Source: Candidatus Nealsonbacteria bacterium RIFOXYB1_FULL_40_15 (lineage in GTDB: Bacteria > Patescibacteriota > Minisyncoccia > Minisyncoccales > GWA2-38-27). From it: DNA of 53,135 nucleotides. The notes under the pieces were generated by a model. That model did not search any database and was not told the origin of the DNA. It saw only the letters and a list, made by a program, of their open reading frames with translations. Position 1 is the first letter of the stretch; each line of letters opens with the position of its first letter. Where the stretch lies: positions 1 through 53,135 of the forward strand of contig MHMM01000006.1 in assembly GCA_001821555.1 (NCBI GenBank), in the 5' to 3' direction. Both the position numbers and the translations under genes were made by a program. Of this stretch, positions 95-47,121 are shown piece after piece.

Positions 95-646
95 TTAGCT
101 GGTTGGCATAGGGAGGTATTTTTCGTAATCTTTGATATAGAATCTGAGTTTTCTTCTGGACCAGTAGGGTCCTGCATAATCTATTCCGATTCTAGGGCTC
201 GAAGCTATAGAATAACGGTTTCTAGAATCCTCAAACCAAATTCTGCCACTTTCGGCAACGTCTTCTCCGTAAAAAGAATTATCCAACCCTAAATGCCTGC
301 AAAGCTTGCCGGGCCCATTTGTCTTCTTTATGTCCCCTCCGCAATCCAAAGCCCGTATCAAAAAACAGCCCGGATACCCTTTTCCATCCGTAGTTATGTT
401 TAACTGCCAATACATTCCGTAAACCAGGTAAATATAGACAAATCCTCCCTCAAGATATTCTACTCTATTCCTTTCGGTCACCTTTCCTCCGAAGGCATGG
501 GAAGCTTTGTCCTGGGGGCCTATGTAGGCTTCTGTTTCAACAACCATGCCCCTATTTTCTCCGACAGCAATAAATTTACCCAAGATATCTTTTGAAACCT
601 GGATTGAGGGACGGCAGAAAAAGTCTCTCCCGAGCCTATTCATCAT
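95..646 (-). CDS. mpg: DNA-3-methyladenine glycosylase (MPG/AAG family)
   Basis: Motifs IVETEAYxG-D-ASHA, YIYLVYGMYW, LIRAL, TNGPGKLC, PRIGI and LRFY, typical of the MPG family. Confidence 0.93.
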   Translation of the reverse strand: MMNRLGRDFFCRPSIQVSKDILGKFIAVGENRGMVVETEAYIGPQDKASHAFGGKVTERNRVEYLEGGFVYIYLVYGMYWQLNITTDGKGYPGCFLIRALDCGGDIKKTNGPGKLCRHLGLDNSFYGEDVAESGRIWFEDSRNRYSIASSPRIGIDYAGPYWSRRKLRFYIKDYEKYLPMPTS

Positions 647-1064
647 CTCTTTTTTTAATAGATTCGTGCTTCTTTTTAAGATCTTCGGATATTTCTTTTC
701 CTGTATTTTTATAATAATCGTAAACAGCTTCAGACAAAGCGTCTATGGCAAGAAGAGAGCAGTGCACCTTTATATTCGGCAATCCTCCCAAGGAGTCAAC
801 TACGTCTTTAGCGTTTATTTTCAGGGCATCTTCAATGCTTTTTCCTTTTGCAAGATCAGTAACGACACTGCTTGTGGCAATGGCGGCTGCGCACCCAAAA
901 GTTTCAAACTTTATATCCTCAATAGCATCTCCTTTTAATTTGATATAAAGTTTCATTATGTCCCCGCATTTCATATTCCCCACCTCTCCTATTCCGTCAG
1001 GATTTTCAATTCTGCCGTAGTTATGGGGATTCTGGAAATGTTCAATTACTTTTTCTGAATACAT
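636..1064 (-). CDS. iscU: Fe-S cluster scaffold, IscU/NifU-N family
   Basis: YSEKVIEHFQNPHNYG, CGDIM, FETFGCAAAIA and KVHCSLLA carry the three scaffold Cys; overlaps iscS. Confidence 0.93.
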   Translation of the reverse strand: MYSEKVIEHFQNPHNYGRIENPDGIGEVGNMKCGDIMKLYIKLKGDAIEDIKFETFGCAAAIATSSVVTDLAKGKSIEDALKINAKDVVDSLGGLPNIKVHCSLLAIDALSEAVYDYYKNTGKEISEDLKKKHESIKKRDDE

Positions 1065-2185
1065 AGAGGCGATATTTTTCTTAATTTATTAACTGATTCT
1101 TTAAGTTTATCAACGAAATAATCTATCTCTCCTTCTGTGGTATTTCTTCCCAGAGAAACTCTCAAAGATCCATGGGCCTGCTCATGTTCTAAACCCATTG
1201 CGATAAGAACATGGCTCGGCTCCAAACTCCTTGAAGAGCAGGCCGATCCGGTTGAGACAGCTATTCCCTCAAGATCAAGAGAAAGAACCAAAGACTCTCC
1301 CTCAATGAAAGAAAAGTAAAAGCTTGCAATATTCTTCAGTCTTTTTTCGGGATGCCCCGTAAGATAAACGTTATCTATCTTCAAAACTTCCTGAACAAGC
1401 TTTTTGAACAATCGGGAAATCTTCTCTAAATCTTTTTCCATTCTTTCTTCTGCGATTTGACAGGCCTTGGCAAATCCTACAATAGAAGGAACATTTACAG
1501 TTGAAGATCTCAACCCCTCCTCCTGCCCCCCTCCATGAATCAGAGGAGTTAAGTCTACTCCTTTTCTCTTGAAGATAATGCCCGCTCCTTTGGGTCCGTA
1601 TATTTTATGGGAACTTGCAGAGAGAAGGTCAATATTTTCAACATCTATTTTTATCTTTCCAAAAGTCTGGGAAGCATCAGTATGAAAAAGAACATTCTTT
1701 TCCCTGCAGATTCTTCCTATTTCTCCTATGTCCTGGATAGTCCCGACCTCGTTGGATCCGTGGATTATAGAAACCAGAGCAGTATCTTTGGTAATTGCTT
1801 TTTCAATATCTAAAGGATTCACCAGGCCGAATTTGTCCACGGGTATCCTAGTAACCCTTGCCCCTTGCTTTTCAAGCCATAAAGCAGACTCCATAATGCA
1901 GGCATGCTCTATGGATGATATTACCATATGAGATCCTTTTATCCCCTTTAATATCGTGTTGTTGCTTTCGGTTGCAGAAGAGGTAAAGAATATTTCTTCA
2001 GGGTCTGCGGAAATCAAGCTGGCGATCTTTTTTCTTGACTCTTCAAGATCTTTTTTGGCTTCTCTTCCCAAAGAATAAAGAGACATGGTGTTTCCAAACT
2101 TATCGGAGAAATAAGGAGCCATCTCTTTGACAGCTAAAGGGTCAACCGGAGTTGTGGCCACATAATCCAAATACACTTTCTTCAT
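1046..2185 (-). CDS. iscS: Cysteine desulfurase, IscS/NifS class
   Basis: YLDYVATTP, PLP lysine in SSHKIYGPKG, catalytic STGSACSS. Confidence 0.95.
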   Translation of the reverse strand: MKKVYLDYVATTPVDPLAVKEMAPYFSDKFGNTMSLYSLGREAKKDLEESRKKIASLISADPEEIFFTSSATESNNTILKGIKGSHMVISSIEHACIMESALWLEKQGARVTRIPVDKFGLVNPLDIEKAITKDTALVSIIHGSNEVGTIQDIGEIGRICREKNVLFHTDASQTFGKIKIDVENIDLLSASSHKIYGPKGAGIIFKRKGVDLTPLIHGGGQEEGLRSSTVNVPSIVGFAKACQIAEERMEKDLEKISRLFKKLVQEVLKIDNVYLTGHPEKRLKNIASFYFSFIEGESLVLSLDLEGIAVSTGSACSSRSLEPSHVLIAMGLEHEQAHGSLRVSLGRNTTEGEIDYFVDKLKESVNKLRKISPLCIQKK

Positions 2186-2556
2186 TTTATTAAATCTTTT
2201 AATGTTTTAGAATAAAGAGTTTCTTGCAAAGAGTCTTTGACATCATCCCAGATATTCTTGCTTGAGCAGATTCTTGCCATCTGGCAACCTTCGCATTCAA
2301 CGGGAACTATGCCTTCTAGCGTCTCCACTATCTCCCCTGCATATATCTTTTCTGGTTTTCTTGCCAAAGAGTATCCTCCCGAAGATCCTTTTTTGGAAAC
2401 TAAAAGGCCGTTAGACTGCAGGTCTTTTAGTATCTTTTCAAGGAAATCAACAGAAATATTCTCTGCTTTTGCTATTTCTTTCAGAGATTTCTTTCCGTTC
2501 TTGGCTATATGTATCATAGCCCTCAATCCATATTGGGTTTTCTTTGATATTCTCAT
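2182..2556 (-). CDS. iscR: Rrf2-family regulator, IscR-like
   Basis: KTQYGLRAM, wing KKGSSGGYSL, three Cys (CEGCQMARIC); first gene of the isc operon. Confidence 0.85.
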   Translation of the reverse strand: MRISKKTQYGLRAMIHIAKNGKKSLKEIAKAENISVDFLEKILKDLQSNGLLVSKKGSSGGYSLARKPEKIYAGEIVETLEGIVPVECEGCQMARICSSKNIWDDVKDSLQETLYSKTLKDLIK

Positions 2557-2580: not shown

Positions 2581-2609
2581 ATAATATCAGGTAAAGAAAA
2601 AGCGGTCAA
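2581..2609 (-). promoter_or_regulatory. Sigma70 promoter of iscR-iscS-iscU
   Basis: TTGACC, 17-nt spacer, TATTAT with extended TGn. The -35 lies inside hairpin GCGGTCA-N5-TGACCGC, which has a minus-strand U tract. Confidence 0.65.
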
Positions 2610-2688
2610 TAGATGACCGCCAAATAGCCATCCTCGGCCAAGACAAACGAGACACTAAAACAGGGTCTCGCCGCCCCGTCTAATATTC

Positions 2689-3096
2689 CTATTTCAACCC
2701 CAGTTTTTCTTTAAGAAGAGGTATAAGCTTATTGGGAGTCCATACGGTTTTGACAAGATATTCCTTGGCATCCAAATCCTTTGTCATTTTATCTTCCATC
2801 TGCTCTCCTGCATAATTAGTTAACACAAATACAGGAATGTTTTTGGTAGCCGGCATCTCTCTTATCACTTCACAAACTTTGTCGCCGTTTACATCCGGCA
2901 AAAGAAGATCAAGCATTATTAAATCCGGCTTTTCTGCCTTGCCCGCCTGGATTTCTTTCATTCTATCTATGGCTTGCTGGCCAAGCTGCATAAACTCAAC
3001 CTCTGCACCCTTAATCTCTTTAATTAATTCAGTATAAAGATCTATTAACATTTGTTCATCTTCAACCCATAAAATCTTCTTAGTTGTTTTTGCCAT
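2689..3096 (-). CDS. Single-domain response regulator (receiver)
   Basis: ILWVEDE, phospho-Asp in IMLDLLLP, LTN and YLVK receiver motifs. Confidence 0.9.
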   Translation of the reverse strand: MAKTTKKILWVEDEQMLIDLYTELIKEIKGAEVEFMQLGQQAIDRMKEIQAGKAEKPDLIMLDLLLPDVNGDKVCEVIREMPATKNIPVFVLTNYAGEQMEDKMTKDLDAKEYLVKTVWTPNKLIPLLKEKLGLK

Positions 3097-3108
3097 ATTT
3101 TTATATAA

Positions 3109-5412
3109 TTATGACTTGGTTATTAATTTGCCGTTTGCCAAAGAAATCGGCTTTTTGTTTGCAAAAGGAGTAGCGTCCACGGGAAGCTCAATATTAAAGG
3201 TGCTTCCCTTTCCTCTGCCTGCAGAGTCCGCCTTAATGTCGCCTCCGTGAGCTTTGATTATTTGAGCTGAAAGATAAACGCCAATCCCCTTGCCGGTTGC
3301 GTTGGCGGACCAGGCCTCTTCGCTTCGTTGAAATGGTTTTTCAAACAGATATTTTTTGTCGTTCTCGTCCATGCCTATTCCCGTATCTTTGACTTCTATG
3401 TTTATTCTATCATTTTCCAAATTAATTTTTACGACTACACCGCCCTTTTTTGTATATTTTATTGCGTTGTCCACTATGTTTTGCAGGGCCATTTTAATTT
3501 GCTTTCGGTCAACCGTAATTTCGGGAATGTCGTCTTCGGATTCAAATTTAAGATAAATTTCCTTCTTCTCGGCTACGGGCACCAAGTCGGCTACAATTTC
3601 TTCGAGCATGTTTCTTATCGGAATACATGGTTGAAGCTGGACGTATCCGTGGCCGAGCTGAAATGCGGATACATTTAGCAAATCGTCAACTACTTCTATT
3701 TCTTTTTGAATTGACTGTTGTGATTTTTGGATTGTCTCAAGAACTTTCTTTGGCATTTTGCCAAAATGCCCGCCTAACAAAAGATCCAGAAACCCCATCG
3801 TAATACTTAATGGGGTTCTTAAATGGTGCTGGGTAACAAGCATAAAATTAGTTTTGGCTTCGTCCAATTTCACCAAATCTTCGTGTGCCTGTTTTTCAAT
3901 CTGATAGGCTTTTTCAACTTCTTCTTTTTGCTGTCTTATCTCTTTTGTCTGCTCATCAACTTTTTGCTCCAATGTTTTGCTAAATTCTTGCACTTTCTTG
4001 TAGAGATTGGCGTTTTCTATGGCAGTAGCCGCCTGATTGGAAAGCATTTCCAATAATTGCAAATCTTCCTTGCTATAGGCGTCTCCCGAAAGCTTGGAGC
4101 CCAAAACTATTATTCCGATTAACTTTGCTCCAGATATTAGAGGAAGACAAAGAGATGCTTCTATCTTCTCCATGTTCTTTTCCAGTTTTTGGAAATTTTG
4201 CTTTTCTGTTATCTTGTTTGTTTCTTTGATCAAAATAGATAGCTCCTCTCTTATCAACGTCTTTCTTGTTTTCTGCAGATGCTGGGTCAAAAAGCTATCT
4301 TTAACCAGACTTATGCCATTTGTTTCGTCAAATCCGATAACCTTGGCTATCTTGTAATGCACCTTTCCTTGATCTTCACCTATCAAAAGAACTCCAGCCC
4401 TATTCAACTGCATTGTATCTTTTATGGTATTAACTATGGAATTTACTATTTTGTCCAAGTCAATACTGTCATTTAATTCTCCAGCCAGATTCGCTATGGT
4501 ATTTTGATAATTGTATAGACTAAAAAATAAATATTTATTGGCAAAAATCCGTATCCATTTACTTAATAAATTAAATACCCCTACAAACAAGGGAGCAACG
4601 ATTAATCCAATCAAATATGTTTTTGTATTATATGATCCTCCTAAAAACTTATTGTAGGACCAATTAATTAAATAATAAGCTCCATAAACAATGCCGGCCG
4701 TTCCGACAAAAATAATAAATTTTTGAATTACAACCCTGATATCCATTAATCTGTATTTCGCCATTGCATAAAAAAGAATAATTGTATAAAGAGCAACCAA
4801 AACATTTCCGATCGGAAGAATCGGAACATCATACCAGAGAAAGAAATTTGTCGCGCCACCGATAAAACTTATAAATGTGGCTAGAATTATATATTTTATT
4901 TGATAGCGGATGACTCCTTTTCTTTTATAATAACTTCTAATTAACTCTATTAATCCATAACCTATCAAACCAACATAAGAAAAAGCTAAATAGACACCAT
5001 ATAATGGCCCTGCTTTCGGCCAAAATTTGAAATTGAGCTCTTGCGTTATTTCTTTTACAAACAAATCGGAAAAAGAAAAGTATAAAAAAACGGCCGTTAT
5101 AAGATAGCCGAAAATTAATAAAGCCAATCTTTTCTTGTCTTTCAATAACCCCAGAACCAATAAAATCCATTGCAGATAGAGAATTGGTATTAAAGTAGAA
5201 CCTATTGAAAGCATTCTTGTCCAAAAAAGAGCCGCATCATAGTTATCCGAGATTTGCCATAAAAAATAAGCCAGTGACCAGACGGCTATTGATATTGTGA
5301 GGATAAAAAAAGAAATATTGATTGCTTTTTTGGGATTTTTGAAAAAAGCAAATCCTCCAAGGATTAAACTTGTCGCAAGATTAATTAATGCAGAAATCGC
5401 ATAAAAATTCAT
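3109..5412 (-). CDS. Sensor histidine kinase: N-terminal 7TM-type region, GAF, HisKA, HATPase
   Basis: About 220-aa multi-TM N-terminus, GAF (LIGIIVLGSK...YSKEDLQLL), H-box HHLRTPLS, N-box NIVDNAIKYT, G boxes DTGIG and GKGIG. Confidence 0.9.
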   Translation of the reverse strand: MNFYAISALINLATSLILGGFAFFKNPKKAINISFFILTISIAVWSLAYFLWQISDNYDAALFWTRMLSIGSTLIPILYLQWILLVLGLLKDKKRLALLIFGYLITAVFLYFSFSDLFVKEITQELNFKFWPKAGPLYGVYLAFSYVGLIGYGLIELIRSYYKRKGVIRYQIKYIILATFISFIGGATNFFLWYDVPILPIGNVLVALYTIILFYAMAKYRLMDIRVVIQKFIIFVGTAGIVYGAYYLINWSYNKFLGGSYNTKTYLIGLIVAPLFVGVFNLLSKWIRIFANKYLFFSLYNYQNTIANLAGELNDSIDLDKIVNSIVNTIKDTMQLNRAGVLLIGEDQGKVHYKIAKVIGFDETNGISLVKDSFLTQHLQKTRKTLIREELSILIKETNKITEKQNFQKLEKNMEKIEASLCLPLISGAKLIGIIVLGSKLSGDAYSKEDLQLLEMLSNQAATAIENANLYKKVQEFSKTLEQKVDEQTKEIRQQKEEVEKAYQIEKQAHEDLVKLDEAKTNFMLVTQHHLRTPLSITMGFLDLLLGGHFGKMPKKVLETIQKSQQSIQKEIEVVDDLLNVSAFQLGHGYVQLQPCIPIRNMLEEIVADLVPVAEKKEIYLKFESEDDIPEITVDRKQIKMALQNIVDNAIKYTKKGGVVVKINLENDRINIEVKDTGIGMDENDKKYLFEKPFQRSEEAWSANATGKGIGVYLSAQIIKAHGGDIKADSAGRGKGSTFNIELPVDATPFANKKPISLANGKLITKS

Positions 5413-5426
5413 ATTCTTGCAAAAAA

Positions 5427-5476
5427 GAAGCCCGAATGCTTAAGCTTCTTTTATTATAGCATAGCATTCGGGCTTC
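5427..5476 (-). terminator. 14-bp stem terminator with an internal extended -10 element
   Basis: GAAGCCCGAATGCT / AGCATTCGGGCTTC perfect inverted repeat, minus-strand TTTTTT after the stem; the loop reads TGCTATAAT on the minus strand. Confidence 0.6.
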
Positions 5477-5482
5477 ACATAG

Positions 5483-6451
5483 TCACTCAGATTTTTCCGC
5501 AACCACCACCCCGTGTATTTTTAGGGGCTCATAAACAATACGGTATGCATCGAAACCTGACTTCTCAATCACCTCCGCCAAATCGGCAGGAGAGCGGTAG
5601 ACCATATTCCAGTCAATAACCCAGCGAACAAAATACTGTTCTGAATTATTGCGGATATTGCAGGTCAGAAATACTCCTCCAGGTATCAATCCTTTGTTTA
5701 TACTCGATATCAGACGGACAGCGTTTTCCCTTGGAAGATAATCCAGCAATCCGAGCATCTCCACAATATGAGGACTGAACCCTCGGATGATTCTGGCTGT
5801 CTGGCAAGCATTGGCCTTGATTATTTGAACCTGATCCCTTACTCCATTTTTTTGTGCCAGATTCTCGGCATAATCAAGCGCTTCCTGCTCAACATCGATC
5901 AGCAATGCCTTAACCCTGACCCCCTTTGTTTTGAGTTCGGCTATCACTTCCAGTATAGCCTGGGCGGAACCGCAAGCTAGGGAAATGAGCCGGACTTCCT
6001 GGCCGTTTTCGCCGAAATGCAGAATCGCTCTCCTCACCTCCTGTTTCACCAGCTTGAAACGGTTTCTTACCGCCTGGCAGTTCTGAGAAAACCACCAAAA
6101 CTCATCGATCCATGTGCTGGGATTGATTGTTAGCTCGAAAGGGTGATTGTAAATAACATCCAGCGCCTTCCATGAGGCCGCCCCCTCTTTTACCTTTCTA
6201 CTGTACAGACCCAGACCGTCGAAAAAAATGGAATTGATTTTCGGCCTGGAGCCAAAAATCAATTTCCACAATGCTTTCTTTGCCAGAACATAGCCGATAA
6301 GCAGCCACATTGCCGGGAGAAGATGCAAGTAAGGAAATCTTCTTTTTTCGAAAACATTGCTTTTGATTATCCGTTTTGAATCGGTTGTTTCTCTCTCCGA
6401 CCTTTCGGTCAGATCAAGGACGCTGATGGTTTCTATCGCTTGTCCATTCAT
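5483..6451 (-). CDS. Class I SAM-dependent methyltransferase, PhcB/YnbC-C-terminal-like
   Basis: AVRNR, motif I SLACGSA, LLIDVE, LGLLDYL, GGVFLTCN, WNMVYRS. Start placed at the ATG 6451 behind an AGGAGG-like RBS (ORF track opens at 6490). Confidence 0.8.
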   Translation of the reverse strand: MNGQAIETISVLDLTERSERETTDSKRIIKSNVFEKRRFPYLHLLPAMWLLIGYVLAKKALWKLIFGSRPKINSIFFDGLGLYSRKVKEGAASWKALDVIYNHPFELTINPSTWIDEFWWFSQNCQAVRNRFKLVKQEVRRAILHFGENGQEVRLISLACGSAQAILEVIAELKTKGVRVKALLIDVEQEALDYAENLAQKNGVRDQVQIIKANACQTARIIRGFSPHIVEMLGLLDYLPRENAVRLISSINKGLIPGGVFLTCNIRNNSEQYFVRWVIDWNMVYRSPADLAEVIEKSGFDAYRIVYEPLKIHGVVVAEKSE

Positions 6452-6563
6452 GAAATTCCCTCCTTTTCTTTTTTGTAGGGATTGGTTCATCTTGCACTTA
6501 TTTTACCGCTTTTCGGTCATTATTCAATTATCAACGCCAGGCACAACTCCTGACACTGGCTAT

Positions 6564-6592
6564 ATTATAGCAAAATACAATATATTCGTCAA
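6564..6592 (-). promoter_or_regulatory. Consensus sigma70 promoter of the methyltransferase gene
   Basis: TTGACG, 17-nt spacer, TATAAT with TGn. Confidence 0.75.
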
Positions 6593-6731: not shown

Positions 6732-7199
6732 ATGATTTTAGTATCAGCCTGTTTATTGGGTATAAACTGCCAATATAACGGAGAAAATGATTTGACGGAA
6801 AAACTTTTGGAATTCCTTAAAGATAAGGGGACATTTATTGCTATGTGTCCTGAAGTTTGGGGAGGACTGCCCATTCCTAGAGATGCCAGCCAAATTGTTG
6901 GTGGAACTGGAATAGATGTTGTCGGGGGTAAAGCAAAAGTTATGTCTATTAAAAACAAAGATGTAACTAATGAATTTATAACTGGAGCAGAAAGAATTTT
7001 ACAAATCGCGAAAGAAAACAATGTTGAGCTCGCCATTCTTAAAGCTAAAAGTCCCTCGTGTGGAGTTGGCAAAATTTATGACGATCTTGCATCGCGTCAT
7101 TTAATCGATGGCGATGGTGTAGCAGCTGCACTATTAAGAAAAAACGGAATTAAGGTGATGACTGAAAAAGATTTGATAGCCGGCAACTGGCCGAAGTAA
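6732..7199 (+). CDS. DUF523 / TudS-like thiouracil desulfidase family protein
   Basis: VSACLLGINCQY, CPEVWGGLPIPR, LKAKSPSCG, GDGVAAALL. Confidence 0.88.
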   Translation: MILVSACLLGINCQYNGENDLTEKLLEFLKDKGTFIAMCPEVWGGLPIPRDASQIVGGTGIDVVGGKAKVMSIKNKDVTNEFITGAERILQIAKENNVELAILKAKSPSCGVGKIYDDLASRHLIDGDGVAAALLRKNGIKVMTEKDLIAGNWPK

Positions 7200-7241: not shown

Positions 7242-8102
7242 TTACAGGAGATGGACTGTTATGCCTGCCTCCTCAAGCATTTTTCTCATGATTCCGCCCA
7301 CTCCGCAGGAAGGAGAGCCCTTTTTAAGATAGGCCCTCTTTATGCCAACCATTTTGGCGAAGTCGAGAACGAGAGACGCTCCCGATCTGTATGGCTGAGT
7401 GTAATCCTTGCCGTCTTTGCCGATAACTCGGCCTCTTTCTAAACGACAGGCCACCCGTGGCGTGGGCATTCCCCCGAGCTGTTCAGGGCAAAGCGGACAG
7501 AGAGTGTACTTCTCCTTCAGCTTGGCAATGAAGCTCTTCCTTGAAAATGAGCGCGCGCGATATTGGCATGGAATACCGAGGCCGCACATGCTGATCAGGA
7601 CGAGTTCTTTTTTGTTTTTTGAGTGCTTGACTTTCAGGCTCTCAAAAAACTTATCATCTGCCAAGGTTTCTTCGGGATAAACTGCAACACCCTCTTTTTT
7701 GAGCAAAGCTGTTGCGACACCGTCGCCCTTGATTCTGGTTGGCTCAAACAAGCCACCCAGTGTCCGGCCACAGCCGCACGACGGGCTGTCCTGTTTCAGA
7801 ATTACAGTGTCAATTCCGAGCAGACGCAAAACTTTCAAAGTAAGCTCGGCACCTCTCAGAAACTGTTTGGCAACATCTCTACCGTCGGCTGTGAGTAGTC
7901 CTTTTTTCCGATCCAGAACTGCGTAACCGTCGCCCTCCACAATCCTTGTTCGGCTTCTCGGAATTGGTAGTCCACCAAGAACTTCCGGGCAAACGGGAAA
8001 AGCCAAGCCATCCTTGATGAGAGTGATGACTCGTTCGTCTGGCGTTGCTTCGCCGGCGTAGTTGCAGGGAATTCCTGCTAAACATGCTGAAACTATAATC
8101 AT
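7242..8102 (-). CDS. Tandem double-DUF523 (TudS-like) protein
   Basis: Two repeats, each with S(A/M)CxxGIPC, CPE(V/Q)LGG(L/M)PxPR and SPSCG. Confidence 0.85.
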   Translation of the reverse strand: MIIVSACLAGIPCNYAGEATPDERVITLIKDGLAFPVCPEVLGGLPIPRSRTRIVEGDGYAVLDRKKGLLTADGRDVAKQFLRGAELTLKVLRLLGIDTVILKQDSPSCGCGRTLGGLFEPTRIKGDGVATALLKKEGVAVYPEETLADDKFFESLKVKHSKNKKELVLISMCGLGIPCQYRARSFSRKSFIAKLKEKYTLCPLCPEQLGGMPTPRVACRLERGRVIGKDGKDYTQPYRSGASLVLDFAKMVGIKRAYLKKGSPSCGVGGIMRKMLEEAGITVHLL

Positions 8103-8117
8103 AGCTTTTACCTCCTT

Positions 8118-9068
8118 TCAAAACTTCTTGATAAAGGGTTTAAAGCCCGGATAGAGCTCCTCCCTCTGGTTCCTCGGCCTGTGTTTCAACGTTCCGTCAT
8201 CGTTGACATTGAACATCACAAGCCTGAAAAGGAAATCTTCGATTTCAGGGTCAGCCGCGATCCGTTTGTACAGATCTCGCTGCGACAGAAGCCTGAACGG
8301 CCACGGCATCTTTTCGCGCCACGTGCAGTTCGTGCTGGTGTGAGGATAGTGGCCGGCGAACGTCGCAATATCCCGTTCCTTCACTTCGGCAAGTGGACGA
8401 ATCAGACGGACACCGTCGCTAATGTTCTCAACTGGGGGATCGTCGGTGGTCGCACGGCCATCTTTGGCCATTTCCTCAACATACTGCAAGTCGATGGTGC
8501 TGGACGCGATGAAGTCTGCCATCTTGTAGCCGTCGTAGGCAATACCTTGCGGCTTCGTGAAGGCGGAAAAATACTTCTCGGTCCAATAGCACTTCATCAA
8601 AGTGGTCAGCATGTCGGCAAGGTGTTGACCGATGACGAACGCTTCTGCTCCGCAACTCCGGGCGTATGCAATCAACGCTGTCGTTCTTGCATTATAGCAC
8701 GGAGTGCACATCGATTCATTTACGCCGAGATTGTCGACGCGGTGCAAACAGGTTCTGATTTGCTCCGCTTCAGCAGTTTTGATGCCAGGCAGAGATGCTT
8801 GGTTGCGCAGATGTAGAACATCGGCGTCCAAGCCCTTACGAACCCTTAGGGCTTCCGCGATTTGGCTTGGCTGAAAGGCCGGGTCATCGCCCCTGTTGGC
8901 TATAACAGGCCTAACATCGTACCCGAGTTCACGAAGGATAAGAATCGCAGTCAGGCTGTCTTTCCCGCCAGAAAACGCAACGGGCACTGGTTGTTTCTTG
9001 TTAGAAACCATAGAATACTTCTCAATAGTTAAAGCTGTGGCAGTGATAATAGTACCTCTATCAAACAT
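8118..9068 (-). CDS. TtcA-like PP-loop ATPase (tRNA thiolase family)
   Basis: PP-loop FSGGKDS, CTPC, IGQHLADM (GHH..D-like), LIRPLAEVKERDI, downstream Cys in TNCTW. Confidence 0.72.
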   Translation of the reverse strand: MFDRGTIITATALTIEKYSMVSNKKQPVPVAFSGGKDSLTAILILRELGYDVRPVIANRGDDPAFQPSQIAEALRVRKGLDADVLHLRNQASLPGIKTAEAEQIRTCLHRVDNLGVNESMCTPCYNARTTALIAYARSCGAEAFVIGQHLADMLTTLMKCYWTEKYFSAFTKPQGIAYDGYKMADFIASSTIDLQYVEEMAKDGRATTDDPPVENISDGVRLIRPLAEVKERDIATFAGHYPHTSTNCTWREKMPWPFRLLSQRDLYKRIAADPEIEDFLFRLVMFNVNDDGTLKHRPRNQREELYPGFKPFIKKF

Positions 9069-40762: not shown

Positions 40763-41458
40763 TCAAGATATTTGGATATGCTCTTTAGATTCTATTTTGT
40801 ATCCTTCTCCATGCATTGTTTTTATAACCTGCTTGTCCTTGCCGTCTCCTATCTTTTTTCTCAACCTGCTCACATATACATCTACGATGTTGCTAAAAGA
40901 ATCAAAGTTGAAATCCCAGACCTTGCTTGCTATATCTTCTCTCTTTACCATTTGATCGGGATGGCGCATAAGATATTCCAAAAGCCTGTATTCTGTAAGA
41001 GTAAGCTTTATCTCTTTTTTTCCTATTCTGACTGTTTTATTTGACGGATCCAGTTCAAGCCCCGAAAGGGAAAGCTTTGAAGGGAGAACGATTTTGGGCC
41101 TTCTTGAAACCGCTCTTATTCTTGCCACCAATTCCTGGAAGCTGAACGGCTTTACAAGGTAATCATCCGCTCCCGCATTAAGCAATGACACTTTGTCTTC
41201 TTCTGAGTCTTTTGCGGTAAGAACAAGTATGGGAATTGAGATCCCTAGTTTTCTTATATTTTTGCAAACTTCAAATCCGTCTCTTTTGGGAAGCATCAAA
41301 TCCAGCACCACCAAATCATAATCTTTATGATGAACTTCTATTCTGCGCTGGCCGACTTCTCCGTCGCCCACATAATCAACCGTATATCCTTCTTTTTTAA
41401 GAGCATCTCTTAAAAGTTTGGCTAAATTCTCTTGGTCTTCAACAATTAGTATTTTCAT
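40763..41458 (-). CDS. OmpR/PhoB-family response regulator (no adjacent kinase)
   Basis: IVED, DLMLP, LTAK, GADDYLVKPF, LTLTEYRLL, VDVYVSRLRKK. Confidence 0.95.
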   Translation of the reverse strand: MKILIVEDQENLAKLLRDALKKEGYTVDYVGDGEVGQRRIEVHHKDYDLVVLDLMLPKRDGFEVCKNIRKLGISIPILVLTAKDSEEDKVSLLNAGADDYLVKPFSFQELVARIRAVSRRPKIVLPSKLSLSGLELDPSNKTVRIGKKEIKLTLTEYRLLEYLMRHPDQMVKREDIASKVWDFNFDSFSNIVDVYVSRLRKKIGDGKDKQVIKTMHGEGYKIESKEHIQIS

Positions 41459-44781: not shown

Positions 44782-44922
44782 AGCTATTATTTTTAAAAGT
44801 TGATAATGCGACAACTAGATACTAATCCATGGTCTCTTAAAAAACTGTTAAACAAAAACGGCCTCAAAGCCGTTATTTCTGCTCTCTGATTTTTATCTTC
44901 TTTTTTAATTAATTCCTATATA

Positions 44923-44951
44923 TTGACTCTTCAAAATTAAGAATGTAGAAT
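44923..44951 (+). promoter_or_regulatory. Sigma70 promoter ahead of the tRNA 5' copy
   Basis: TTGACT, 17-nt spacer, TAGAAT; predicted TSS a few nt before 44962. Confidence 0.7.
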
Positions 44952-44959
44952 ACAAATAC

Positions 44960-45010
44960 ATTCCGCGGTAGCTTCAGCCAAAGGCTGATCCGCCTCCGGC
45001 GGACAATGGT
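44960..45010 (+). repeat. Duplicated 5' end of tRNA-Asn interrupted by a 30-nt double hairpin
   Basis: ATTCCGCGGTAGCT + [TCAGCC-AAA-GGCTGA, TCCGCC-TCC-GGCGGA] + CAATGGT versus ATTCCGCGGTAGCTCAATGGT at 45246-45266. Confidence 0.85.
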
Positions 45011-45257
45011 TATGTTCTTTGTATATATTTTAAAAAGTTTAAAAAATGGCAAAAGATATATTGGTTGCACAGGAAAAGAACCAGAGATCAGAATAATAGA
45101 GCATAATTCTGGTTGCAATAAGTGGACTAGAGTAAATAAGCCCTTTAAGCTTATTTATAAAGAATTATATAATAGTAAAACGGAGGCACTAAAAAGAGAG
45201 AACTTTTTAAAATCTGGCCAAGGAAGAAAATTCATTGATCAACATATTCCGCGGTAG
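45006..45257 (+). CDS. Stand-alone GIY-YIG nuclease
   Basis: FVYIL...RYIGCT, R..EHN, T....P, EAL.RE..LK; start and stop codons both lie inside tRNA-derived sequence. Confidence 0.9.
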   Translation: MVMFFVYILKSLKNGKRYIGCTGKEPEIRIIEHNSGCNKWTRVNKPFKLIYKELYNSKTEALKRENFLKSGQGRKFIDQHIPR

Positions 45258-45319
45258 CTCAATGGTGGAGCAAGAAGCTGTTAACTTCAAGGTTGCAGGT
45301 TCGAGTCCTGCCCGCGGAG
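45248..45319 (+). tRNA. tRNA-Asn(GTT)
   Basis: Acceptor TCCGCGG/CCGCGGA, D arm GCTC/GAGC, loop CT-GTT-AA, T arm GCAGG-TTCGAGT-CCTGC, discriminator G, no encoded CCA. Confidence 0.95.
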
Positions 45320-45391
45320 CCGAGATAGACGAACAGGAACAAAACCTCCTATTTTTCCTTTTTTCAAAAAGCCTAATTTCCTATTCAAAAA

Positions 45392-45508
45392 CTGTTTCCA
45401 TATTTTTATGTTTTGCCCGTTCTGGCCTTGACTTTTTAGATAAATAAGCGCATAATTTAGCTATTGTTAATTTGTACATTCAATCCCCTGCATAGATCGA
45501 AAGGAGAA
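45392..45508 (+). repeat. 117-bp promoter/RBS module, copy 1
   Basis: Identical to 52769-52885 except 3 substitutions; contains TTGACT-17-CATAAT (45428-45456) and ends at AAGGAGAA. Confidence 0.9.
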
Positions 45509-45511
45509 GTC

Positions 45512-46363
45512 ATGCCGAACGTAGAAATTCATGGAATGGGCAAACGAGAGGAAGCCAATCAATTGGCAGACAAGATCTTCCAACTTTTTGCCGACAAACC
45601 ATATGTCGATGAGATGGTTGTCACCATCTTCGACACGTTCGTCCGGGACAAGGAAGGAGATTCGCAGCCGTTCCTCCGTCTGGCAAATTCATGCCAAGAC
45701 CACACGACAGAAATTATCCAGAAACTCCGCCGATTGGGACTTGATGTCGAGCACGTTCAGCTCCAGGCATTCTACCCCAAGCAGACAATCATCGCGGTTT
45801 CAGTCAACGAACTTAATAAGTTCGGCTGCCCTCACTGTGGATATCGTTCGGGAGCAATGCCTGTTTCCGGCGGCGGATCGGGAGTATGGCAGTGTGGAGA
45901 GTGCGGAAAGACTTGCTGCGTTCTTGCTGAAGGTGTCGTCAAGTCGACAATCGGCTTCAATGGAGAGTATCCCGAATTGCAGTCGCATCCCCGACGCGGC
46001 ACGCCAGCGCATGGGCGACCTGACAACAAGCCGGATAGCGGAGGCGAATTCTTCCGTTCTCGTGGAATCGGGCTTGATGACTGCAGTTGTTTCGTTTGCG
46101 GCACGAAAGGGCATCCCATGCTTCACAACATTGCGGCTTTCGTGCAGTGCAAGGAAGCTGGCGAACGGGTAGTTACAATGATCGGGCAGGGTGCAGTCCT
46201 CGACTATCGTGAATACGAACCCGATCGCGTTCAGGTCAAGGTTGGTGCATGCGATGCTCACTATGCTAACCTCGAAGAGCTCGACAGATTGGTCAGTAGT
46301 GGCACCATCAGCACCAATGTGGTCAAAATGGCAAGGGATTTTTCCCTAACTCCCTCCAAGTAA
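45512..46363 (+). CDS. Hypothetical protein with multiple Zn-ribbon motifs
   Basis: Start MPNVEIHG after AAGGAG; CPHC, CGECGKTC, CSCFVC, CDAH. Confidence 0.75.
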   Translation: MPNVEIHGMGKREEANQLADKIFQLFADKPYVDEMVVTIFDTFVRDKEGDSQPFLRLANSCQDHTTEIIQKLRRLGLDVEHVQLQAFYPKQTIIAVSVNELNKFGCPHCGYRSGAMPVSGGGSGVWQCGECGKTCCVLAEGVVKSTIGFNGEYPELQSHPRRGTPAHGRPDNKPDSGGEFFRSRGIGLDDCSCFVCGTKGHPMLHNIAAFVQCKEAGERVVTMIGQGAVLDYREYEPDRVQVKVGACDAHYANLEELDRLVSSGTISTNVVKMARDFSLTPSK

Positions 46364-46384
46364 AATAGGGGCATTCTTGCTAAG

Positions 46385-46425
46385 GCGTGATTTTATCGGT
46401 AATACCGGTGATATCACGCTTTTTT
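46385..46425 (+). terminator. Intrinsic terminator
   Basis: GCGTGAT...ATCACGC followed by TTTTTT. Confidence 0.6.
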
Positions 46426-46454
46426 ATTTAATTAACAATATACTATGTAGGTTC

Positions 46455-46523
46455 TAACCCTTCAGTAAATTCAGGGTAAACCCCTTTCGGTGAACTCGGG
46501 TAAACGTCCCGCCCAAGGCGGGC
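46455..46523. repeat. Tandem imperfect repeat plus mini-hairpin
   Basis: CCCTTCAGTAAATTCAGGGTAAAC / CCCTTTCGGTGAACTCGGGTAAAC, then CCCGCC-CAA-GGCGGG. Confidence 0.55.
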
Positions 46524-46596
46524 AGGCGTCTATTGCACGGAGCAGTTAGTATTATAAAAAATCGCTTTTTAAGTGGTTTTTTGTTAGAATAAAATA

Positions 46597-47121
46597 ATGA
46601 AACCGAAAGCGAAAGTCTATATTGACGGGGCAAATATGTTTTACACTCAAAAGAAATTGGGTTGGTTTATTGATTGGAAAAAAGTAAAAGATTTTCTTCA
46701 AGAAAATCGAGAAATCTTAGAAATTCGTTATTATACGGGCCTAAAAGTTAACGATGAAAAGATGGCAAGCTTCCTTAGATATTTAGATAATATTGGAATT
46801 GCGCCATTTACTAAACCAGTAAAAGTTATTAAAGTTGGTAACGATCATCCTTCAAAAAAATTTTATAACTATTCAGAAATTTATAAATCCAACTGTGATG
46901 TTGAGATGGCAACAGATATTCTCTTGGAAAGAAAAGAAATAGATGAAATAATTTTATTTACGGGTGATAGCGACTTTCAATACTTAATAAAGAAATTGAA
47001 AGATATAGGCAAGAAGGTTGCAGTTTTTTCATCGAGAAAAACCATTTCTTGGGAAATAAAATTGGTAGTTACGAAATACATTTATTTAGAAGATATTAAG
47101 GATAAAATAATACGAAAATAA
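46597..47121 (+). CDS. NYN-domain (LabA/DUF88, PIN-like) ribonuclease
   Basis: YIDGANM, DVEMATD, FTGDSDF acidic triad, GKKV. Confidence 0.92.
   Translation: MKPKAKVYIDGANMFYTQKKLGWFIDWKKVKDFLQENREILEIRYYTGLKVNDEKMASFLRYLDNIGIAPFTKPVKVIKVGNDHPSKKFYNYSEIYKSNCDVEMATDILLERKEIDEIILFTGDSDFQYLIKKLKDIGKKVAVFSSRKTISWEIKLVVTKYIYLEDIKDKIIRK

Follow-up and report, generated by a model that had tools for sequence, protein, structure and literature searches.

What does a methyltransferase gene do at the head of a sensor kinase operon in a bacterium with a genome of 761 kb? The question arises from a 53,135-nt stretch of DNA (hereafter the window), contig MHMM01000006.1 (C6) of the 99%-complete genome of Candidatus Nealsonbacteria bacterium RIFOXYB1_FULL_40_15 (GCA_001821555.1). 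Positions 2601–6592 of its minus strand form a single compact transcription unit: a promoter-like site, genes for an S-adenosylmethionine (SAM)-dependent methyltransferase, a sensor histidine kinase and a receiver-only response regulator, and a terminator-like hairpin. An earlier note on this DNA had described three co-oriented genes with these products, and Pfam bears out the domains of all three, which share the minus strand. We propose that the operon is a make-and-sense unit, wherein an ester made by a membrane-anchored, PhcB-type O-methyltransferase would be read by its cognate nine-helix kinase and reported to the receiver, a reading that we hold with about as much doubt as confidence. 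It builds on the domain anatomy of the three proteins, the specific homology that links the enzyme with PhcB and YnbC, a predicted fold like that of small-molecule methyltransferases, a conserved gene adjacency, a single sensor clade and the co-divergence of enzyme and sensor; from these we infer the substrate class, the product, the role of that product as kinase ligand, and the output.

Bacteria of the Candidate Phyla Radiation (CPR, or Patescibacteria), to which the window belongs, account for much of the diversity of bacteria; their genomes are typically of about this size, and they live attached to other cells or depend on them. To our knowledge, almost nothing is known about how they sense these partners. 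A methyltransferase family with specific kinship to an established signal synthase, and with a firm tie to a sensor lineage of its own, offers a concrete, clonable entry point.

The methyltransferase and its relatives

Which known system comes closest? In phcBSR of Ralstonia (PMC11960443, PMC8578825, PMC6989110), as in the window, the gene for a methyltransferase is followed by genes for a multi-pass membrane histidine kinase and a receiver. Exact DNA patterns for the Ralstonia phc locus (a diagnostic primer and the first 21 nt of phcS, PMC11960443) gave no matches, and our yardstick for PhcB is a locus on megaplasmid pPHS1_P of Paraburkholderia graminis (L024), found by tblastn with the window methyltransferase. 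There, genes for a methyltransferase of 468 amino acids (aa), a kinase (445 aa), a receiver (134 aa) and a response regulator (344 aa) follow one another. Relatives of this methyltransferase (65–92% identity) bear the source name 'extracellular factor (EF) 3-hydroxypalmitic acid methyl ester biosynthesis protein', and relatives of the kinase are named PhcS, including those of Ralstonia pseudosolanacearum and R. syzygii, with ~50% identity in the sensor region. Because of these names, we take the locus to be a genuine phc locus, and it has the very order—methyltransferase, kinase, receiver—that the earlier note had ascribed to phcBSR.

The window methyltransferase (5483–6451, minus strand; 322 aa in its likely true extent) passes the Pfam model PF12147 (Methyltransf_20) with 47 bits against a gathering cut-off of 21, aligning to profile positions 69–309 of 309, and all 120 of its listed relatives carry this domain. 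The archetype of PF12147 is the C-terminal half of Escherichia coli YnbC (508 bits), to which the window protein, as a distant member, is 17–19% identical. With the Paraburkholderia PhcB ortholog, it has 25% identity over 259 aa (BLASTP, E 3e-14). At the level of profiles (hhalign), the CPR family aligns with the PhcB family over 172 core columns (99.1%, E 1.7e-18) and with the YnbC family over 274 columns, nearly full length and including the N-terminal cap (99.4%, E 5e-22); the PhcB and YnbC families align with each other at 93% (profile–profile, E 3e-7). Since these scores link it to both, the CPR family bridges the two. On the 494-kb pPHS1_P, our CPR profile (A1) had the PhcB ortholog as its sole match (72 bits, E 6.5e-21), passing over a gene for cyclopropane fatty acid (CFA) synthase two genes away, and in E. 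coli K-12 it gave YnbC 44 bits and all other methyltransferases at most 15. In reverse, hidden Markov models (HMMs) of the PhcB and the YnbC families each matched the window methyltransferase alone in the 761-kb genome. Judged by these sequence comparisons, the enzyme is a specific relative of PhcB and of the C-terminal domain of YnbC, and its family comprises at least 483 clusters at 50% identity (E ≤ 1e-30).

How far does the likeness extend into the catalytic residues? Invariant in the family are R129-N130-R131, G161, D186, E231, G234, D237-Y238, N269, E271, W281 and Y285. Outside the SAM loop, the motifs RNR, GL-DY, N-x-E and W-x-x-IYR are common to the CPR family and PhcB, with R129-N130-R131, G234/D237-Y238, N269-x-E271 and W281/Y285-R286 as the aligning residues; YnbC retains part of these, DY, N-x-E and Y285 not being kept. 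The earlier note had quoted AVRNR, ACGSA, GLLDY, CN and W.MVYR, all of which are present in the translation, and had matched them to both families as a signature: for PhcB the signature is real, whereas for YnbC it holds only in part.

The homology to PhcB is confined to the catalytic domain (hhalign, PhcB residues 258–440). PhcB proteins are ~465 aa long with a conserved N-terminal half, unlike the CPR enzyme, in which a YnbC-like cap—the N-terminal 100 residues, with a hydrophobic helix at aa 39–57 (hydropathy), ahead of a class I Rossmann core—takes the place of this half. Unlike the window enzyme, YnbC itself is fused to an α/β hydrolase and encoded in ynbABCD or other phospholipid clusters with no kinase. 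Stand-alone PF12147 members of ~310 aa exist in Pseudanabaena and Moraxella, and ten longer members of the family, scanned for fused enzymes, had solely a tetratricopeptide repeat (TPR) and uncharacterised N-terminal extensions.

An AlphaFold2 (AF2) model of the methyltransferase (predicted local distance difference test, pLDDT, 86.7) had as its best Foldseek match 3ocj, an uncharacterised Bordetella protein (template modelling, TM, scores 0.62/0.66), followed by natural-product O-/C-methyltransferases, C-methyltransferase (C-MeT) domains of polyketide synthases (PKS) and CFA synthase; no RNA, DNA or protein methyltransferase was among the top 50 PDB matches. The fold is predicted to group with small-molecule methyltransferases, and HMM and structure comparison alike agree with the earlier note in setting the enzyme, as a specific relative of PhcB and the YnbC C-terminus, apart from RNA and protein methyltransferases. 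PDB sequence searches with the methyltransferase, the family profile, PhcB and YnbC reached at best 26 bits and returned no solved member of the PhcB/YnbC lineage. For 3ocj, sequence gave no tie to either the PhcB or the YnbC family.

Linkage to a lineage of sensor kinases

The gene downstream of the methyltransferase (3109–5412, minus strand) encodes a histidine kinase of 767 aa. Its membrane sensor module (4528–5412, minus strand) has about nine hydrophobic segments by hydropathy, made up of a HisKA_7TM domain (PF16927; aa 12–225, 65.5 bits against a cut-off of 28.6) and two further helices; kinases with this seven-transmembrane (7TM) domain are called 7TM kinases below. A GAF domain (4012–4461, minus strand; aa 318–467; Pfam GAF, GAF_2 and GAF_3) precedes the core (3175–3855, minus strand), consisting of HisKA (aa 520–580, 30 bits, with an intact H-box, HHLRTPLS) and HATPase_c (aa 635–746, 83 bits), both by Pfam. 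The AF2 model of aa 1–300 (pLDDT 89.9) contains nine helices and a conserved β-hairpin at aa 119–134 with an invariant W131-P132. As in phcBSR, the kinase is without a large extracytoplasmic domain. The receiver (2689–3096, minus strand; 135 aa) begins 12 nt past the kinase, and Pfam assigns it Response_reg at residues 8–125 (57 bits) and no output or DNA-binding domain, as the earlier note had said; PhcQ and the 134-aa receiver of the Paraburkholderia locus are likewise without one. With a receiver domain encoded beside the kinase, phosphotransfer between the two is predicted.

Is this pairing of enzyme and kinase particular to the window? Among 401 Patescibacteria genomes (GTDB) scanned with PF12147 and HisKA_7TM, PF12147 matched 13, and six of these, besides the window's own, hold true homologs (29–57% identity). 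In each of these six genomes, a HisKA_7TM kinase gene comes directly after the homolog, in the same orientation. The enzyme family is rare in this sample (~2% of genomes) and the kinases are common (175/401, 44%); we rejected the PF12147 scan as a measure of true family frequency, since profile A1 finds divergent relatives upstream of other 7TM kinases. From metagenomes, the family alignment yielded 80 loci, including 66 methyltransferase genes with at least 700 bp of downstream sequence. A 7TM kinase lies immediately downstream in 54 of the 66 (gap −20 to +134 nt), and in one more the kinase call overlaps the methyltransferase gene, making direct linkage 55/66; four further loci have it 1–3 small genes away, the intervening genes encoding a 4HBT thioesterase, or CoaC, CoaB and a transglutaminase-like protein. 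Adjacency is kept down to 27–30% methyltransferase identity and across several families and classes, and the linkage, which the earlier note had proposed to test across Patescibacteria, is indeed conserved, over dozens of lineages.

Complete linked kinases carry a GAF domain in 31 of 43 cases. Next to the linked kinases, a receiver-only protein is encoded downstream in 23 of 28 GAF-type cases and in none of the 11 GAF-less ones (0/11), which makes the window operon an instance of the full three-gene subtype. Two loci hold tandem methyltransferase–kinase cassettes, one GAF-less and one GAF-type (L076:5433–10915 and L079:5441–11139), with enzymes as well as sensors that fall into separate sub-clades. 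Elsewhere, kinase-less proteins of ~345 aa that consist of HisKA_7TM only are encoded just upstream of the methyltransferase (L093:6069–7112, L099:5729–7834, L100:654–1703, L070:7162–7863).

Do the linked kinases share a sensor of common descent? Our comparison set comprised 40 other 7TM kinases, with their upstream DNA, from genomes without a PF12147 match; in six of the 40, the gene directly upstream encodes a divergent relative of the same methyltransferase family that had escaped Pfam. A tree of 111 7TM domains unites all 60 methyltransferase-adjacent domains (60/60) in a single clade (SH-aLRT, the Shimodaira–Hasegawa-like approximate likelihood-ratio test, 96), which also takes in those of the loci with the kinase nearby and the kinase-less copies; 31 of 41 sampled other 7TM domains lie outside it. 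For 43 non-redundant cassettes, pairwise distances between methyltransferases tracked those between the 7TM halves (Spearman 0.69; partial Mantel r 0.54, p 0.0005), as compared to 0.23 and −0.12, respectively, for the kinase cores. Such co-divergence fits, without being decisive, a functional tie that joins the enzyme to the membrane-embedded half of its kinase. The genome's second HisKA_7TM kinase (contig C10:82942–87822; 556 aa, no GAF), which shares 1 nt with a DUF362 gene and has a radical SAM gene two genes further upstream, also has its 7TM domain within the methyltransferase-linked clade.

These patterns bear on two other explanations. One is mere co-location, the genes having been inherited or transferred as a block without shared function. 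A patchy cassette, present in ~2% of genomes and set in surroundings that vary between lineages, would be compatible with a mobile block, but its adjacency survives to the low enzyme identities given above, order and strand are fixed, gaps are minimal, and the sensor clade is dedicated, with co-divergence that is domain-specific; we regard co-location as extremely unlikely. The other is that the enzyme methylates the kinase or the receiver and thereby tunes the sensor, adjacency then marking an enzyme and its protein substrate. The analogy here is CheR and the chemoreceptors, where a SAM methyltransferase is functionally tied to a membrane sensor, and the very tight adjacency (overlaps to −20 nt), the membrane-anchoring helix, the co-divergence with the 7TM half, and weak CheR-type Pfam matches in the precomputed lists of a few relatives would all be in line with it. 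Yet the specific homology of the enzyme lies with PhcB and YnbC and does not extend to CheR or further protein methyltransferases, and with CheR itself there is no specific similarity in sequence or fold; nor is there a CheB-type partner. Together with the absence of protein methyltransferases from the top 50 structural matches, the acyl-handling neighbours at other loci and the ~10% of family members without a kinase, this leaves protein methylation very unlikely.

Signalling or lipid handling

How might the make-and-sense unit work? Anchored in the membrane, the methyltransferase would convert a hydrophobic carboxylate to its methyl ester, the substrate most likely being a fatty-acyl-type acid acquired from outside, since the genome cannot make fatty acids. 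The ester would enter the membrane and be sensed within the nine-helix bundle of the kinase from the next gene, which in turn would signal via GAF to its HisKA/HATPase core and phosphorylate the bare receiver; the latter would work by protein–protein contact rather than DNA binding. Similar logic is found in LuxM–LuxN, CqsA–CqsS and LqsA–LqsS, pairs in which an autoinducer synthase is encoded beside a multi-pass kinase that binds a hydrophobic signal within its helices. Their kinases, like the proposed unit, have six to nine transmembrane helices, no periplasmic domain and a phosphorelay output, whereas the synthase chemistries and the sensors are unrelated, and those kinases are hybrids or feed relays of the LuxU/LuxO type. 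Those pairs are also experimentally proven; the CPR cassette is known here from sequence comparison.

Clues to the substrate come from what the genome holds and from the neighbourhoods of the cassette. Local tblastn with E. coli queries found no PlsX, FabH, FabD, AcpP or FabF in the genome, the FabG query giving only generic matches to short-chain dehydrogenases/reductases. A FadD-like AMP-binding ligase is encoded near the cassette in seven loci, and the 4HBT thioesterase gene between enzyme and kinase, named above, is a further acyl-related neighbour. In five loci (L055, L056:6639–7853, L057 and two more), the gene directly upstream of the methyltransferase encodes a FadL/TodX/OMPP1-type β-barrel, an outer-membrane type of protein that is odd for bacteria thought to have no outer membrane. 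In many lineages, the cassette sits inside the dcw cluster for division and cell wall, with FtsW immediately upstream (L088:6810–7898, L067:5835–7181, L064:9134–10252 and others) and a Mur ligase, MurG, MraY and a D-Ala-D-Ala carboxypeptidase nearby; no genes of this cluster lie next to the operon in the window. YnbC-type relatives, for their part, are always found among phospholipid genes (CdsA, CDP-alcohol phosphatidyltransferase, acyltransferase, PAP2), a neighbourhood that is absent around the window methyltransferase and is not one that recurs around members of the CPR family.

Alternatively, the operon may serve to handle membrane lipids or fatty acids, with its two-component system in control and the methylated compound being a metabolic end product and not a message. 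The enzyme would then methylate scavenged free fatty acids or a membrane lipid, whether for detoxification, to tune the membrane or to build the envelope; the 7TM kinase would sense membrane state or substrate; and the receiver would adjust the enzyme or the cell-wall and division machinery, with control being post-translational because the receiver has no DNA-binding domain. Much of the above would sit well with this view: the likeness to the YnbC methyltransferase domain over its full length, with a lipid-type substrate being likely for both, the company that YnbC relatives keep, a genome that is without type II fatty-acid synthesis (FASII) and scavenges its lipids, FadL and FadD-like neighbours, a cassette lying between ftsW and murG in many lineages, and the receiver itself. 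By contrast, the pocket motifs resemble those of PhcB, a known signal synthase, more closely than those of YnbC, no phospholipid genes flank the operon in the window, and sensor lineage tracks enzyme type across very different enzymes (decarboxylases, N-acyl synthases, ThiF), a pattern that product sensing explains more easily than a shared sensor of membrane state would. On balance, we think lipid handling rather unlikely. In a related variant, the direction of the logic may be turned around, with the two-component system controlling the enzyme instead of the kinase reading its product.

Returning to the make-and-sense reading, several observations weigh against it. The N-terminal ~250 aa of PhcB are absent from the window enzyme and PhcB proteins themselves fall below the PF12147 cut-off, both being departures from the analogy with phc. 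All relatives of PhcS carry a MASE8 domain (PF20968), and homology of HisKA_7TM to MASE8 was rejected, hhalign giving 0.1%, no better than a reversed control; nothing on the ligand transfers from PhcS. No significant solved relative of the sensor fold emerged either, Foldseek giving weak matches to eukaryotic 7TM receptors (E ≥ 1.6e-3, TM 0.4–0.5). In seven of the 66 metagenome loci (~10%), the methyltransferase has no 7TM kinase downstream. Co-divergence is not decisive because the 7TM half is encoded nearer to the methyltransferase gene, which could itself favour joint inheritance, and both adjacency and co-divergence would also be expected if the kinase regulated the enzyme or physically bound it. 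Without FASII and acyl carrier protein (ACP), a fatty-acyl substrate must be taken up, so that a fatty-acid-derived signal wholly of the cell's own making is excluded: this argues that at least the carbon skeleton of the signal is not made by the cell and weakens a pure 'autoinducer' reading. The dcw location of many loci would be compatible with a role in the envelope no less than with signalling. Finally, the evidence from which we infer a signalling function is comparative throughout. As for the eukaryotic 7TM receptors, we drew neither kinship nor ligand from the likeness, taking it as a generic resemblance among helical bundles.

Where does this leave the comparison with phcBSR? Sequence comparison makes the enzymes homologous and the sensors analogous, not homologous: unlike PhcS, the window sensor combines nine-helix HisKA_7TM with GAF and has no MASE8. 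Unlike in phc, neither a PhcA-type LysR regulator nor a PhcR-type partner was seen, and unlike the phc hosts, the bacterium belongs to a different phylum, has a tiny genome and is without fatty-acid synthesis. The earlier claim of a signal synthase with its cognate sensor is thus partly supported, by the specific homology to PhcB and the conserved linkage, but not as a copy of phc, with MASE8, the N-terminal half of PhcB and FASII all missing.

Is the pairing restricted to methyltransferases? Most of the other sampled 7TM kinases (L110–L149) have a gene for a different small-molecule enzyme directly upstream on the same strand, including other class I methyltransferases (4), ThiF-like/NAD-binding proteins (6), N-acyl synthases of the FeeM/GNAT/LuxI-like kind (4), serine hydroxymethyltransferase (SHMT; 2), an Orn/Arg decarboxylase, a pyruvoyl histidine decarboxylase, UbiA and a nitroreductase. 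At the sequence level, this suggests a general 'enzyme + 7TM kinase' module in CPR. A bolder extension, which we deem unlikely, is that HisKA_7TM serves as a platform for private small-molecule languages, with each sensor lineage hard-wired to its own upstream synthase (PhcB-like methyltransferases, FeeM/LuxI-like or ThiF-like enzymes, amino-acid decarboxylases). The window operon would then speak a methyl-ester dialect, wherein a host-derived fatty acid reports host contact or lipid supply to the episymbiont and the receiver relays this to the division and cell-wall machinery.

In the literature searched, we found no published description of a methyltransferase–7TM kinase cassette and no mention of PF12147/Methyltransf_20. 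One survey of CPR quorum-sensing genes leaves PhcB unmentioned and dismisses CPR 'PhcS homologs' as false positives (PMC7567580), and the sole mentions of HisKA_7TM in the literature covered name it as a domain and give no ligand (PMC5847659, PMC6944256). What is new here is a PhcB-type enzyme paired with a different receptor class, in a different phylum and with a different output. If the make-and-sense reading is true, methyl-ester signalling would extend from a few Burkholderiales to another phylum, with a different receptor, and ligands would suggest themselves for the commonest class of sensor kinase in CPR, found in 44% of the 401 sampled genomes.

Operon boundaries and surroundings

Where does transcription of the operon start and end? 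A consensus scan placed its best-scoring site of the region at 6592–6564 on the minus strand, a promoter-like sequence of the sigma-70 type (TTGACG-17 nt-TGcTATAAT) whose function is presumed from the sequence. The earlier note had called this promoter perfect; while it is indeed the best site of the region, it is near-consensus (11/12, with an extended −10) and not perfect. As a class, promoter-like sites are not enriched in the region (11 against 12.6 expected from shuffles). The methyltransferase open reading frame (ORF) spans 5483–6490 (minus strand) and would encode 335 aa if its first ATG were used. Its product probably has 322 aa instead, because a strong Shine-Dalgarno sequence, AGGAGG (6459–6464, minus strand), stands 7 nt 5′ of the second in-frame ATG at 6451, the equivalent of which is the start Met in most relatives (family alignment A1). 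The methyltransferase and kinase genes are 70 nt apart, and 68 nt past the stop codon of the receiver, a terminator-like hairpin with a T-run (2601–2621, minus strand) closes the operon.

This hairpin (2621–2601) overlaps the promoter-like site of the next operon, which lies directly downstream (636–2556, minus strand) and encodes an Rrf2-type regulator, an IscS-like cysteine desulfurase and an IscU-like scaffold. The window also holds the genome's sole response regulator with an output domain (40763–41458, minus strand; OmpR-type DNA-binding); the remaining five receivers in the genome are stand-alone domains, as compared to six kinase cores. GC content reaches 0.44–0.47 between 6001 and 10000, against 0.37–0.40 around, and this GC-rich segment harbours DUF523-like ORFs at 6732–7199 (plus strand) and 7242–8102 (minus strand) and an ORF with the PP-loop motif SGGKDS at 8118–9068 (minus strand). 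Further along, at ~44800–46600, GC skew and gene orientation both flip at the minimum of the cumulative skew, with no dnaA seen nearby, and a GC-rich, cysteine-rich ORF (45464–46363, plus strand) is located at this flip.

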